DNA of 64,000 nt from Escherichia coli (lineage in GTDB: Bacteria > Pseudomonadota > Gammaproteobacteria > Enterobacterales > Enterobacteriaceae). The first letter of the stretch is position 1, and each line of letters starts with the position of its first letter. Shown piece by piece: positions 48,056 to 63,705 of the stretch. The notes under the pieces were generated by a model, which was not told the origin of the DNA, did no database searches, and saw only the letters and a program-made list of their open reading frames with translations. Where the stretch lies: NCBI RefSeq assembly GCF_003334385.1, contig NZ_QOWN01000004.1, one strand, 5' to 3'. The position numbers and the translations under genes were made by a program.

Positions 48056-48990
48056 ACCGCGCTCTTGATGTCAGACTCCCTGAACAGTTCTCGATAATCG
48101 GGAAACTCAGAGCGCATTATCCTGTGGTCACACTCTGCCATGTGTTCGGGGTTCATCGCAGCAGCTACAGATACTGGAAAAACCGTCCTGAAAAACCAGA
48201 CGGCAGACGGGCTGTATTACGCAGTCAGGTACTTGAGCTACATGGCATCAGCCACGGTTCGGCCGGAGCAAGAAGCATCGCCACAATGGCAACCCGGAGA
48301 GGCTACCAGATGGGACGCTGGCTTGCTGGCAGGCTCATGAAAGAGCTGGGGCTGGTCAGCTGTCAGCAGCCGACTCACCGGTATAAACGTGGTGGTCATG
48401 AACATGTTGCTATCCCTAACTACCTTGAAAGGCAGTTCGCCGTGACCGAGCCAAATCAGGTGTGGTGCGGTGATGTGACCTATATCTGGACGGGTAAGCG
48501 CTGGGCGTACCTCGCCGTTGTTCTCGACCTGTTCGCAAGAAAACCAGTGGGCTGGGCCATGTCGTTCTCGCCGGACAGCAGGCTCACCATGAAAGCGCTG
48601 GAAATGGCATGGGAAACCCGTGGTAAGCCCGGCGGGGTGATGTTCCACAGCGATCAGGGCAGTCATTATACGAGCAGGCAGTTCCGGCAGTTATTGTGGC
48701 GATACCAGATCAGACAGAGTATGAGCCGGCGCGGAAACTGCTGGGATAACAGCCCAATGGAACGCTTCTTCAGGAGTCTGAAGAACGAATGGATGCCGGT
48801 GGTGGGTTACGTAAGCTTCAGCGAGGCAGCTCACGCCATAACGGACTATATCGTTGGATATTACAGCGCACTAAGACCGCACGAATATAACGGTGGGTTA
48901 CCCCCAAACGAATCGGAAAATCGATACTGGAAAAACTCTAACTCGGTGGCCAGTTTTTGTTGACCACTTCAGATGTTTCCTGAGCAAGCC
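48056..48990 (+). mobile_element. IS3-family element remnant: orfB (DDE transposase) only, abutting the IS30 end
   Basis: ORF 48124-48963 has the rve integrase-core fold (WCGDVTYIW...[10 protein letters not shown]...[12 protein letters not shown]...); the orfB frame stays open upstream to the IS30 junction and no orfA is present. Confidence 0.7.
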
Positions 48991-48996
48991 AGATCT

Positions 48997-49833
48997 TCAT
49001 CCTCTCCTGAACACCTCCCTCCTATGCCACTCCACGAATTCGTCCTGCGGGTAGTATGCTTTTACTTGCGGCAGAGAAATGCTCTTCCCCTGAAAATCCC
49101 AAAACAACCTACCGACGATCCCGCTACCGTTGACCGCTTCTGAAACCTGTACTCGCATACTCTCATCTAAACCAATGGATCCCTTATCAAAAGCTTTATG
49201 ATAAATTGCGCAGAGGGCCAGACCATTAGGAATTTCGCAAGGGCCACCGTACTGCTTCCATTTGATATAGGCCGCCTCCAGCGCGACAGAAGTATTGTCG
49301 TGGCGCATATTGAAGCCGCAAATGGCGCATTCGTAGTTGTAGGCTCGCAGTACCTGTTGGCGGAACAGGGGATCGCGCTGCTTACGTAGCAACAAGAGCT
49401 CAAATCCTAGTTCATCGGCGAGTTCTTCCTGAATGCTCTCGGTGAAATGGGCTTCGAGGATTTGTCGGGCGAGGGAATTAATCAGGCTCTTACTTTTTAT
49501 CAGTTGGTCGTAATGTTGCTTATCAAAGCCGCCAGCAACGTTATGCTCAACCAGCTCACCTGCGGGAGGTCGTCGACTGCTGCCAAATGTGGAACAGCGC
49601 TCCGCGTTTTGTAGTTGCCAGAAACCGTCCCCCTGTAAGCGCCAGAAAGGCATATCCGGTCGGTACTGGGCTCGTTGGGGGCCAAATCGCTCCAGCAGAC
49701 TATGTAGGTTGTCGCGATCTTCCGAAGCGTAATTAAACAGACGCCCATGACCTTGCCGATAACCCGCCAGTACGTATAACAGCAGTAATGGCTTATGCGG
49801 CGCGCACTGCTCGCCATTGCGCCAGGTCGTCAA
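48997..49833 (-). CDS. HNH-family endonuclease with an N-terminal putative DNA-recognition domain, ~278 aa (start uncertain, TTG)
   Basis: C-terminal HNH zinc/active-site pattern YNYECAICGF...RHD...PNGLALCAIYHKAFD; the only in-frame start upstream is TTG at 49833. Confidence 0.6.
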   Translation of the reverse strand: MTTWRNGEQCAPHKPLLLLYVLAGYRQGHGRLFNYASEDRDNLHSLLERFGPQRAQYRPDMPFWRLQGDGFWQLQNAERCSTFGSSRRPPAGELVEHNVAGGFDKQHYDQLIKSKSLINSLARQILEAHFTESIQEELADELGFELLLLRKQRDPLFRQQVLRAYNYECAICGFNMRHDNTSVALEAAYIKWKQYGGPCEIPNGLALCAIYHKAFDKGSIGLDESMRVQVSEAVNGSGIVGRLFWDFQGKSISLPQVKAYYPQDEFVEWHRREVFRRG

Positions 49834-49847
49834 TTGCCTGTTGCAAC

Positions 49848-49880
49848 ATTTGACTGGAACCCATTTGACTGGAACCCATT
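49848..49880. repeat. Tandem 15-bp direct repeat (ATTTGACTGGAACCC x2 plus a partial third copy)
   Basis: Perfect tandem duplication read directly from the sequence, just upstream of the HNH gene start. Confidence 0.6.
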
Positions 49881-50114
49881 GATTTCATTACTCGGGAAAT
49901 AATTGCGATGATGCTCGCAAAATACGGCCTGATCAAGCGGTAAAGGAGGGATACACTGGCGGGGTCACGGAGTCCTGTCAATGAGACAAGCAAAGCCCCG
50001 GATTACATGGATCTCATCAAATGAATGAATTACCCGATCGCTTGCCACGTGATGTTACACCGGCAAAATCCGCCGATGATACTGGAAGATTTAAAGCAAC
50101 GATGAGATGAAATC

Positions 50115-61737: not shown

Positions 61738-61749
61738 GCTGGGGGCGAT

Positions 61750-63006
61750 ATGGATTTCTTTCGTTTTTTGATGAGCGATGTACTTTCCGAACCCGCAGTG
61801 CTGGTCGGTTTAATCGCCCTGATTGGCCTGATTGCACAGAAAAAACCGGTAACCGAATGCATTAAAGGTACCGTCAAGACCATTATGGGGTTTGTGATTT
61901 TAGGCGCAGGGGCGGGTTTAGTTGTGTCGTCACTGGGTGACTTCGCAAACATTTTCCAGCATGCCTTTGGTATTCAGGGTGTAGTGCCGAACAATGAAGC
62001 CATTGTTTCCGTAGCGCAGAAAAGCTTCGGGAAAGAAATGGCAATGATTATGTTCTTTGCGATGGTTATCAACATTCTGATTGCCCGTTTCACACCGTGG
62101 AAATTTATCTTCCTGACCGGTCATCACACGTTGTTTATGTCGATGATGGTAGCGGTAATTCTGGCAACAGCAGGCATGACTGGCATTACGCTTATAGCCG
62201 TTGGCTCTTTGGTTGTTGGCGTGGCAATGGTCTTTTTCCCGGCTATAGCGCATCCGTACATGAAGAAAGTGACCGGTTCTGATGACGTTGCCATCGGTCA
62301 CTTCTCAACATTATCTTATGTATTGGCCGGTTTCATCGGCAGCAAGTTTGGTAATAAAGAGCACTCGGCTGAAGACATGAACGTGCCGAAAAGTCTGCTG
62401 TTCTTGCGCGACACGCCGGTTGCTATCTCTTTTACCATGAGCATAATTTTCCTGGTGACGTGCCTGTTTGCCGGGGCAGATGTGGTGAAAGAGCTTAGCG
62501 GTGGTAAAAACTGGTTCATGTTCTCCATCATGCAATCCATTACCTTCGCAGCTGGCGTGTACATCATTCTGCAGGGTGTGCGTATGGTGATTGCGGAGAT
62601 TGTTCCGGCATTCAAAGGTATTTCAGACAAGCTGGTTCCGAATGCCAGACCTGCTCTCGATTGCCCGGTCGTCTTCCCTTACGCACCTAACGCTGTACTG
62701 GTTGGTTTCCTGAGCAGCTTTGCTGCAGGTTTAATCGGTATGTTCATGTTGTATCTGCTGAACATGACCGTGATTATTCCTGGTGTGGTGCCGCACTTCT
62801 TCGTAGGTGCGGCTGCAGGGGTATTCGGTAATGCAACGGGTGGACGTCGTGGTGCGATTTTGGGGGCCTTCGCTCAGGGCTTGCTTATTACCTTCCTGCC
62901 AGTATTCTTATTGCCTGTGCTGGGTGATATTGGTTTTGCTAACACCACCTTCAGTGATGCTGACTTTGGCGCACTGGGTATTTTGTTAGGGATTATCGTT
63001 CGCTAA
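61750..63006 (+). CDS. PTS EIIC permease (ascorbate family, UlaA/SgaT-like), 418 aa
   Basis: Polytopic membrane protein starting MDFFRFLMSDVLSEPAVLVGLIALIGL...; operon order IIA-IIB-IIC downstream of the LacI regulator. Confidence 0.8.
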   Translation: MDFFRFLMSDVLSEPAVLVGLIALIGLIAQKKPVTECIKGTVKTIMGFVILGAGAGLVVSSLGDFANIFQHAFGIQGVVPNNEAIVSVAQKSFGKEMAMIMFFAMVINILIARFTPWKFIFLTGHHTLFMSMMVAVILATAGMTGITLIAVGSLVVGVAMVFFPAIAHPYMKKVTGSDDVAIGHFSTLSYVLAGFIGSKFGNKEHSAEDMNVPKSLLFLRDTPVAISFTMSIIFLVTCLFAGADVVKELSGGKNWFMFSIMQSITFAAGVYIILQGVRMVIAEIVPAFKGISDKLVPNARPALDCPVVFPYAPNAVLVGFLSSFAAGLIGMFMLYLLNMTVIIPGVVPHFFVGAAAGVFGNATGGRRGAILGAFAQGLLITFLPVFLLPVLGDIGFANTTFSDADFGALGILLGIIVR

Positions 63007-63018
63007 TATTTTAATGAC

Positions 63019-63075
63019 ATTAATATCCTCCAGGATTTCAGGAACGTGGAGGATATTAATTCCTCTTATTTTTTT
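63019..63075 (+). terminator. Rho-independent terminator after the PTS operon (12-bp inverted repeat TTAATATCCTCC...GGAGGATATTAA + T-rich tail)
   Basis: Perfect 12-bp inverted repeat 13 nt after the IIC stop, followed by TTCCTCTTATTTTTTT. Confidence 0.55.
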
Positions 63076-63539
63076 CCATTTTTCTTTCTTCCAGTTAGGA
63101 CTGCATCTGATTAATCGTAAGCGCTCCGAGAAGTACGTAGTGTAAGGATTATTTTACAGTTGAGAAGTTTCAGTGCAGCAGTTCATGCACACGGTTCGAC
63201 GGCTAGTCATTGATCTTCATAATAACCTCGCGTAAAAAGCGGGGTAAGGCCGCTCATCCAGCGTCATCTCGACAGGTAATAATTCAACGCCAATGCCAGA
63301 AGAGTTCCTTACCGGAAGACGCCGTGATATACGCCCTTTGATCAGCCAGAGCCTGAGCCATTTGAACAGAAGATTATCATTGATATCATGCTCCCGGGCA
63401 GGCAACAGAAACCCTTGGTTGTAAAGCCAGTTTAACCATTTGAAGTTTAAACTCATTTGAACATGACCTGCGGGGTTCAGCTGATAATGTTTTTTGTTCC
63501 ATAACAGGTGTCCACTAGTTGAAAAGGTGGGTACCTATG

Positions 63540-63705
63540 TTACCAATACTGGCTTAATGGCTACATACAGCAGTCGGTTTACGCATACACTTTTATAGTG
63601 CACTCCGGCCTCATGAATATAACGGCGGATTACCGCCGAACGAATTGGAAAATAGATACTGGAAAAAATCTGAAATTGTGACCAGTTTTTGTTGACCACT
63701 ACAAA
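63540..63705 (+). mobile_element. IS3-family orfB 3'-end remnant (second copy, related to 48883-48963)
   Basis: Translates in frame to ...[34 protein letters not shown], a close but non-identical match to the C-terminus of the orfB at 48124-48963. Confidence 0.55.

Follow-up and report, generated by a model that had tools for sequence, protein, structure and literature searches.

Two non-identical IS3-family orfB 3′ ends flanking 14.7 kb of the leuX island of Escherichia coli

The scatter of insertion sequence (IS) fragments over the leuX (KpLE2-type) island is a textbook illustration of genome plasticity in E. coli. The closest described arrangement is IS911B of the K-12 KpLE2 (leuX) island, present there as insO::IS30D, and an interruption of a K-12 IS911 by IS30A is on record (PMC9333248). 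A second relative is a degenerate IS911-like element on the nanXY/yjhE side of the leuX island in strains such as FORC 064 and Z0117EC0036, whose annotation of it reads simply 'IS3 family transposase, frameshifted'. IS-flanked deletions and composite transposons with direct IS copies form a third group; in these, same-strand IS ends flank accessory genes, like the pair described below, and elsewhere in the island such repeats coincide with the presence or absence of large segments. Unlike the repeats in that group, the present pair is homeologous (81% identity), has one IS end per member and supplies the two endpoints of no variant.

The stretch of DNA analysed, called the window here, comprises 64,000 nucleotides of the E. 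coli contig NZ_QOWN01000004.1 (assembly GCF_003334385.1) and lies in the genomic island at leuX (tRNA-Leu). The two IS ends very probably represent the right termini of two separate IS911-lineage elements (IS3 family); they would have been left at different times in a mosaic island and are effectively inert as partners of each other.

The repeat pair and its elements of origin

A repeat search of the window returned a direct two-copy repeat of 114 nt at 48,861-48,974 (copy 1) and 63,593-63,706 (copy 2), both on the plus strand and spaced by 14,732 bp. In an ungapped comparison 92 of the 114 positions were identical (81%, i.e. 19% divergence), and blastn gave E = 3e-25. The longest perfect run shared by the copies is 19 nt, followed by runs of 13 and 11 nt; for this 19-mer, CCAGTTTTTGTTGACCACT, the window has exactly two occurrences, where 0.02 would be expected by chance. 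These two values rule out chance similarity as the source of the repeat. Outside the 114 nt the similarity falls off sharply on either side, to 1-4 matches per 10 nt, and the IS tips proper lie at 48,971 (...CCACTTCA) and 63,703 (...CCACTACA). Just two copies of this end repeat are found within the window. The same arrangement is seen in complete genomes of many independent isolates, which rules out an assembly artefact; 2013C-4991 and PO06101 are examples of carriers. The initial annotation had described two similar, non-identical orfB 3′ ends on one strand and had taken them for remnants of two related ISs. Both points hold: each copy consists of an IS3-family orfB 3′ end with a terminal inverted repeat, the two come from related but different elements, and the positions given at the time were correct to about 20 nt, with both translations in agreement.

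Copy 1 takes in the final 34 orfB codons of IS911 together with the right inverted repeat and another 3 nt of flank. It is the end of a longer IS911 3′ fragment (916 bp, 48,056-48,971, plus strand; 'IS3-like element IS911 family transposase, missing N-terminus' in RefSeq) which spans orfB from just past the A6G frameshift site to the tip of the right inverted repeat, ...TTGACCACTTCA. The fragment scored 302 bits with the NCBIfam model NF033516 transpos_IS3 (DDE/rve integrase core), over profile positions 105-368 of 369 and against a cut-off of 160, and is thus assigned to IS3 OrfB. It is 99.6% identical to annotated IS911 copies and 96.4% identical to K-12 IS911B-1 over 798 nt. The copy 1 tip, ...GGCCAGTTTTTGTTGACCACTTCA (ending ...CA), is the reverse complement of a TGAAGTGG... 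end of the kind found in the intact IS911 of strain YJ4, whose left inverted repeat starts with TGAAGTGGCACACTG.

Neither a left end nor orfA accompanies this fragment. Just after the A6G site it is abutted by the right tip, ...GATTGAATCTACA, of an IS30 3′ fragment (47,257-48,055, plus strand) devoid of the N-terminal part; RefSeq labels the identical region 'IS30-like element IS30 family transposase, missing N-terminus'. Copy 1 is a dead IS911 fragment and not an element. The IS30/IS911 junction lies at AAAAAAGGCTAC, as in K-12 insO::IS30D. The insertion point of IS110 in strains of the KFu019 and FORC064 types was considered as the start of the fragment and was rejected: IS110 is inserted after AAAAAA, and IS30 6 nt further, after GGCTAC.

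The locus thus shares with K-12 both the island downstream of leuX and the GGCTAC site of IS30 in the frameshift region. In contrast to insO::IS30D, the IS30 here is truncated and in the opposite orientation, the 5′ part of IS911 is absent, and the right IS911 tip abuts the gene of an HNH endonuclease for phosphorothioated (PT) DNA, not yjhV/fecE. The K-12-type yjhV junction persists as a separate 240-bp IS911 relic (copy 3) about 24.6 kb downstream, outside the window. Copy 1 would derive from a young IS911 into whose frameshift region IS30 was inserted and whose 5′ third has been lost.

Copy 2 is an orphan relic without annotation in RefSeq, and its IS part extends from about 63,596 to 63,703 on the plus strand. 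It retains the last 31 codons of orfB and the right inverted repeat (tip ...TTGACCACTACA), approximately 110 bp in all, and 26 of the 31 residues are identical to IS911 OrfB. An orfB C-terminus and the terminal inverted repeat of an identifiable IS are therefore present. IS911 proper is another matter: isoforms conventionally share more than 95% nucleotide identity by the ISfinder rule of thumb, whereas identity to IS911 is 81% over the relic and 75-78% over its long version (77.6% over 919 nt for the FORC 064 element). Copy 2 is instead about 97-98% identical to the last 110 bp of this long degenerate element (97.3% with FORC 064). In 7 genomes of the FORC 064 type the long version occupies the right junction of copy 2 and aligns with it base for base. 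Compared with the long element, which carries an IS110-family insertion, nothing ahead of the last 31 codons is left in copy 2.

Among 72,556 plasmids no relative of the long degenerate element closer than about 78%, and no intact relative, was found. Copy 2 was also considered as a piece of an active or named IS, and this was rejected, since searches of E. coli genomes and plasmids gave only degenerate chromosomal copies and IS911 at ~78%. The long version was counted in 1197 genomes at ≥80% coverage, a figure inflated by low-identity IS911 pieces that were joined; the usable count is the 58 genomes with the queD-flanked form. The relic itself is fixed beside a sugar module (aldose-1-epimerase/fucP/rbsK) in 1350 of 5426 complete genomes, about a quarter, and in the 40 records listed it is single-copy and chromosomal, with no annotated feature beneath it. 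A much older, degenerate IS911-like element probably lost all but its last ~110 bp by a truncation associated with IS66. Each of the two copies has one end only and no transposase, and on that account neither can transpose.

The DNA between the copies

The copies bracket an HNH gene, a sigma-54 operon, an IS21 remnant, a group II intron and a PTS operon, as the initial annotation had it and as RefSeq annotation, Rfam and NCBIfam agree. The first gene, on the minus strand at 48,997-49,833, encodes the HNH restriction endonuclease binding phosphorothioated DNA (NCBIfam PT-DNA_restrict, 414 bits; cut-off 180). It is followed at 50,115-55,760 by a sigma-54-dependent regulator (minus strand) and genes for a CaiB/BaiF CoA-transferase, an HMG-CoA lyase and an MFS transporter (plus strand). 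A junk zone at 56,675-59,561 holds an IS21 fragment (minus), the group II intron (plus) and an IS110 fragment (minus). The reverse transcriptase/maturase of the intron is broken into two plus-strand ORFs, and Rfam matches (group-II-D1D4-3, D1D4-1 and Intron_gpII) are located at 57,441-57,728 and 59,167-59,238. The second module, at 59,689-63,006, consists of a LacI-family regulator (minus) and an ascorbate-type PTS IIA/IIB/IIC operon (plus); in other lineages, such as Nissle 1917 and Z0117EC0036, it accompanies copy 2.

Immediately left of the truncation point of copy 2 lies a putative IS66-family TnpA-like remnant (63,217-63,456, minus strand), with weak NCBIfam IS66 TnpA matches (E 5e-6, below cut-off); its orthologue in Nissle 1917 is annotated 'transposase'. 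The end of an IS2 copy is inserted 125 bp right of copy 2 and runs off the window (63,829-64,000, minus strand; RefSeq 'IS3-like element IS2 family transposase'), and Nissle 1917 has an empty site at this position. A search for a sigma-70-like site between 63,400 and 64,000 gave none, so an outward promoter from the inverted repeat of copy 2 was not found in this interval.

Genome screens were carried out on the 5426 complete RefSeq E. coli genomes, a sample which rare deletions in drafts or within populations would escape. The HNH/sigma-54/CoA/MFS module (48,990-55,800, ≥80% coverage) was detected in 120 of them and the whole 17.5 kb in 116; the exact IS911-HNH junction was present in 56, and the exact left context was found in 18 records. 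The HNH module is thus far rarer than the PTS/copy 2 module (1350 genomes), and for this reason the bracketed segment does not constitute a unit. What lies between the copies (14.7 kb) is a patchwork of at least two modules of very different prevalence, split by IS21, intron and IS110 debris, and forms no mobile or excisable unit.

Structural variants and alternative readings

Several genomes differ in large segments of the island. PCP06022 is without about 24.6 kb, from the copy 1 tip to the third IS911 relic on the yjhV side, and this loss also takes out the PT-DNA restriction gene; like PO06101, PCP06022 was isolated from seawater at San Cristobal, Galapagos. In Z0117EC0036, copy 2 and a 98%-identical cognate flank a 35.3-kb segment that contains Dpd, and genomes of the FORC064 type look exactly as they would if the DNA between copy 2 and this true partner had been deleted. 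RM12581 shows plain recombinational mosaicism at the yjhV site. In the KFu019 type (7 genomes) an authentic IS911 right end is placed on the right flank of copy 2, which superficially resembles a product of copy 1 and copy 2. All diagnostic bases to the very tip are of the IS911 type, however, 3 nt are missing from the flank, and on the left the context differs, being a complete IS911 interrupted by IS110 and adjoining an integrase pseudogene. For these reasons the KFu019 allele is neither a crossover inside the 114-nt homology nor derived from the arrangement of this window.

Such alleles could also be read as the outcome of fresh insertions. The dead IS911-type ends of the island, copy 2 and the yjhV-side relic among them, would attract an active IS911 by OrfAB-targeted insertion. 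Identical IS911 copies would next recombine, or the newcomer with an upstream IS911 fragment, e.g. copy 1, so that the relic is lost and tens of kb are deleted or replaced. Dual target specificity of IS911 and targeted transposition beside an inverted repeat are referred to in PMC9333248 (its refs 25 and 26), and Loot 2002 and Rousseau 2008 appear as works on IS911 targeting in the reference lists of PMC9333248 and PMC2909936. In line with this reading, two relic sites have alleles with a 100% IS911-type tip in place of the relic's own and a flank reduced by 1-3 nt: at the copy 2 site KFu019 has TTCA/AAATAAAAG against ACA/AATAAATAAAAG of the relic, and YJ4 and PCP06022 are examples at the yjhV site. 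A natural IS911 junction of right end, GAG and left end, with a 3-bp spacer, is also carried by six E. coli plasmid records.

Against these points, no intermediate with relic plus intact IS911 was found at the copy 2 site in the chromosomes searched; in the corresponding query for the yjhV site, any single complete IS911 gives both halves within joining distance. The flank shortening is 1, 2 or 3 nt and not a constant 3, PCP06022 is explained equally well by allelic replacement through recombination with a donor of the short allele, and the mosaicism of RM12581 is that of plain recombination. Taken together, targeted insertion at the relics appears unlikely, though it is the best placed of the alternatives. 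Were it true, the expected footprint would be an intact IS911 tip 1-3 nt past the old relic tip, as in KFu019, YJ4 and PCP06022.

The copies had further been proposed as substrates for homologous recombination, by which RecA would remove the 14.7 kb in one piece, by deletion or excision, in some strains. Their direct orientation would allow this, and direct IS-end repeats appear to have been used in this way elsewhere in the island (copy 2 and its cognate, Z0117EC0036 versus the FORC064 type). The pair itself does not support the proposal. According to PMC8918686, RecA-type recombination depends on a stretch of strictly identical sequence, put at no more than about 30 bp for bacteria, and mismatch repair stops diverged partners from completing an exchange; the longest identity block here falls short of this ~30 bp. 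A synthetic copy 1 × copy 2 deletion junction, used as query against the 5426 complete genomes, returned no hybrid junction: the 14 genomes matching at ≥80% coverage were 7 with the long degenerate element and 7 with a full IS911-type end. The parts of the segment are also unequally distributed (120 against 1350 genomes). Natural deletions of the bracketed segment, the check suggested at the outset, were seen, but they run from copy 1 to the third relic, beyond the window, and do not end at copy 2; variants with the same left context (Zn-ribbon/YagK/IS30′/IS911′) stop elsewhere, PCP06022 at the copy 3/yjhV junction and KSC64 at nanS. Judged by the refuting conditions of the initial annotation itself, the proposal of recombination fails for this pair. 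Excision between the two copies is accordingly highly improbable. Being 81% identical and sharing perfect runs of 19 nt at most, the copies are in effect inert towards each other, and the known requirements of RecA and mismatch repair point to a low rate of recombination between them.

Scarcely credible is a composite transposon in which two IS911-type copies once mobilised the HNH/sigma-54/PTS cargo jointly, for although cargo genes are indeed flanked by two IS3-family ends in one orientation, the copies stem from elements about 20% apart, the left one has no outer left end (IS30 abuts it), the right relic and PTS module exist in genomes that lack both the left copy and the HNH module, the prevalence of the cargo modules differs 10-fold, the internal IS21/intron/IS110 debris marks separate acquisitions, and no target duplication is apparent (GAT after the copy 1 tip, AAT after that of copy 2, left ends absent).

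Significance for the leuX island

Copies 1 and 2 are ordinary insertion-sequence debris. The pair is of little importance in itself and is useful chiefly for annotating and interpreting the island. In a quarter of E. coli genomes copy 2 is the unannotated marker of an island junction that is conserved, and neither a mobile-unit boundary nor a hotspot of instability in the HNH/sigma-54/PTS segment should be read into it. The repeats that coincide with real variation are the copy 1 tip with the yjhV-side relic (the 24.6-kb loss) and, in other lineages, copy 2 with its cognate (the 35-kb Dpd segment). If dead IS911 ends did serve as insertion targets, the alleles at these sites would provide evidence from natural populations for a targeted pathway so far known mainly from plasmid assays.

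The leuX island and its direct repeat

The window belongs to the E. coli chromosome, and the DNA to the right of leuX, the tRNA-Leu(CAA) gene (22525-22609), is the leuX genomic island. An integrase is followed by the complete Dpd 7-deazaguanine DNA-modification/restriction system (dpdA-dpdD, 25506-45715), located directly downstream of leuX, with queD (45978-46340), and then by zinc-ribbon and YagK fragments. Next are an IS30 fragment and an IS911 fragment, a gene for a phosphorothioated-DNA-binding HNH restriction endonuclease (48997-49833) and a sigma-54 regulator with CaiB/HMG-CoA-lyase/MFS genes. 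IS21, group II intron and IS110 debris, a LacI/PTS IIA-IIB-IIC operon, an IS66-TnpA-like scrap, copy 2 of the repeat described below and IS2 (starting at 63829) complete the order. Of 5426 complete E. coli genomes, 116 have the region 46500-64000 at 80% coverage or more. Presence of the Dpd system within 3.3 kb of the HNH gene suggests a defence-island arrangement. At the equivalent island position, strain Z0117EC0036 has a different Dpd arrangement.

The group II intron (57441-59238; Rfam D1-D4 and domain V/VI matches) is located between the IS21 and IS110 fragments, and its reverse transcriptase/maturase is broken up into two ORFs (57904-58338 and 58356-59162). A related intron (ltrA) was seen intact inside the IS911 fragment of strain KFu019 and of several genomes having 46500-64000. 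To the left of leuX are four ~96-nt REP/BIME-like units in a tandem array (15249-15634) and, 13.6 kb from them, an inverted partner (1659-1700); repetitive extragenic sequence of this sort is ordinary in E. coli.

The window contains a single long direct repeat of the type under study, in two copies. Copy 1 (48861-48974) and copy 2 (63593-63706) are on the same strand, 14,732 bp apart, and match at 92 of 114 positions in an ungapped comparison (80.7%; blastn E = 3e-25). Directly beyond the 114 nt, identity in the flanks falls to background level. The 19-mer CCAGTTTTTGTTGACCACT, common to both copies, occurs twice in the window against 0.02 expected. The initial annotation of two same-strand IS3-family orfB 3' ends was thus borne out, its translations included.

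Identity of the two copies

Copy 1 forms the tip of an IS911 3' fragment of 916 bp (48056-48971). The identical sequence is annotated in RefSeq as an IS911-family transposase lacking its N-terminus, and the 279-aa ORF matched NCBIfam transpos_IS3 with 302 bits over profile positions 105-368 of 369. At the DNA level, identity is 96.4% to K-12 IS911B-1 and 99.6% to annotated IS911 copies. The 5' edge of the fragment is the right tip of IS30 (...GATTGAATCTACA/ACCGCGC; slashes mark junctions), so the left end and orfA are absent. Copy 1 is therefore IS911 by sequence, in the form of a dead fragment and not a complete element. The IS30/IS911 joint is the GGCTAC site directly past the A6G frameshift motif, the identical site at which IS30D breaks IS911B (insO) in K-12; interruption of IS911 by IS30 has also been described at a different K-12 locus (PMC9333248). 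The same junction was found at other loci in ~340 genomes. Directly after the A6 run of the motif, an IS110-family element is present in KFu019 (record L005:10708/12295) and in strain FORC 064 (L006:13122/14700); these elements are ~90% identical, and their IS911-like hosts are 15-25% diverged. In the window (48055/48056) and in K-12, IS30 sits 6 nt beyond the IS110 insertion point. These insertions in two diverged hosts, with IS30 so close by, suggest a sequence-specific insertion target, or a hot spot, in the frameshift region of IS911.

A 128-nt query covering copy 2 matched 1350 of the 5426 genomes, always in the chromosome and at a median of one place per genome; among the matches listed, none of 40 records carried an annotated feature beneath it. 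In Nissle 1917, copy 2 occupies the same place, between the LacI/PTS operon and an aldose-1-epimerase/fucP/rbsK/DeoR module, with no IS911 upstream. In seven genomes of the FORC 064 type, a far longer frameshifted IS3-family element, itself containing an IS110-family insertion, has the identical right junction, and its end matches the alignment of copy 2 base for base. This degenerate element is only 75-78% identical to IS911, and no relative closer than IS911 was found among 72,556 plasmids. Copy 2 is therefore what is left of an older, distinct element of the IS911 lineage that is not IS911: its terminal ~110 bp, with 31 codons and the right inverted repeat. The initial view that the copies were similar, non-identical remnants of two related elements agrees with this assignment.

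The IS tip of copy 2 (...CCACTACA) ends at 63703, and its left break adjoins the IS66-TnpA-like scrap. Directly to its right, a short plus-strand reading frame (63704-63828, ...LLGKKTMEVEILKEAVEYTTLQ*) may, judged by eye, encode the C-terminal end of an IS3-family OrfA belonging to a further element. In the ST131 strain 2017_APHA, ISEc23 (IS66 family) lies inside copy 2, ~12 nt from the tip (L008:3001-3200), and the PTS IIC gene is truncated. The surroundings of the relic are still gathering insertion sequences. The left ends of K-12 IS911B (L004:13085-13185) and of the FORC 064 degenerate element (L006:12755-12860) abut the same nucleotide beside yjhE (...CAGGGC/TGAAGTGG); the IS parts are only 85% identical, against 98.6% for the 700-nt flank.

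Recombination and deletion in the island

The copies had been proposed as substrates for homologous recombination. RecA-type exchange can start only from a block of strict identity, at most ~30 bp in bacteria, and exchange running into diverged sequence is aborted by mismatch repair (PMC8918686). The copies share no unbroken identity longer than 19 nt, the next runs being 13 and 11 nt. A deletion-junction query (IS911 left part, copy-2 right part and flank) was searched against all complete genomes. Fourteen genomes covered at least 80% of it and none was a copy 1/copy 2 hybrid. Seven had the FORC 064-type element. The other seven, of the KFu019 type, had a genuine IS911 end whose diagnostic bases are all IS911-type as far as the tip and which is joined to the flank of copy 2 minus 3 nt (TTCA/AAATAAAAG vs ACA/AATAAATAAAAG), with a left context different from that of the window. 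With no hybrid among them, there is no evidence of recombination inside the 114-nt homology, and the pair is not a credible substrate.

The bracketed segment is also not a unit. Its HNH/sigma-54/CoA/MFS module (48990-55800) was found in 120 genomes and the PTS/copy-2 module in ~1350, the two being kept apart by the IS21/intron/IS110 debris. The exact IS911-to-HNH junction was found in 56 genomes and the exact left context in 18 records. A composite transposon was rejected, copy 1 being an incomplete IS911 and copy 2 not IS911.

Repeat-mediated recombination stands for near-identical partners elsewhere in the island, not for copies 1 and 2. In Z0117EC0036, the long degenerate element and an orphan copy 2 provide a pair of 110-nt direct repeats that differ by only 2 mismatches, lie 35,353 bp apart and enclose a Dpd system and PTS genes; the element-to-queD junction of this arrangement was found in 58 genomes. 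The FORC 064-type structure exactly fits a putative crossover in the first ~45 nt of this repeat.

Strain PCP06022 matches window 27900-48971 with 5 mismatches in 21,072 nt and then runs straight into yjhV-fecE. The ~24.6 kb that it lacks comprise the entire bracket, copy 2 and the sugar module, as well as an ISEc23 and a third relic. This copy 3 is a same-strand, K-12-type IS911B end beside yjhV/fecE (L001:38824-39063), ~9.6 kb past the window end, and forms the right endpoint of this natural deletion. Over 240 nt it shares 92.5% identity with copy 1, and it matches the K-12 IS911B-1/yjhV junction at 99.5% identity. Since the PCP06022 junction (CCACTTCA/CTACTTG) is copy-1-type up to the tip, with the flank 2 nt short, the crossover was not inside homology. 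Allelic replacement by a donor with intact IS911 at yjhE/yjhV (as in strain YJ4), end-targeted insertion of IS911 with subsequent IS911 x IS911 recombination, and illegitimate joining are possible routes. Strain PO06101 shares the Galapagos seawater source of PCP06022 and carries the complete structure. KSC64 (L009:26566-30442) shares the left context and HNH-MFS module with the window and is then deleted as far as nanS. After this module it carries a second PT-DNA endonuclease fragment, another HNH gene and nanS/nanM/nanC/fim, and it is without the PTS module, copy 2 and the fec operon.

IS911 tips at relic sites

At two relic sites, some strains carry a perfect IS911 tip (..CCACTTCA) on the flank of the relic minus 1-3 nt (KFu019, L005:15480-15500; the yjhV junctions of L011 and L010). 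In RM12581 (L012), the yjhV site is a plain recombinational mosaic. In six records of a ~141-kb plasmid, an IS911 right end is joined to a left end through a 3-bp GAG spacer (L013:2600-2620, NZ_CP062900.1). The recurrent shortened-flank alleles, together with this natural plasmid junction, hint at end-targeted IS911 insertion in nature, a reading we consider unlikely. Taken together, these remnants are ordinary insertion-sequence archaeology in a well-known mosaic island, and the recurring alleles with an IS911 tip and a shortened flank at relic sites are its sole mildly unusual thread.
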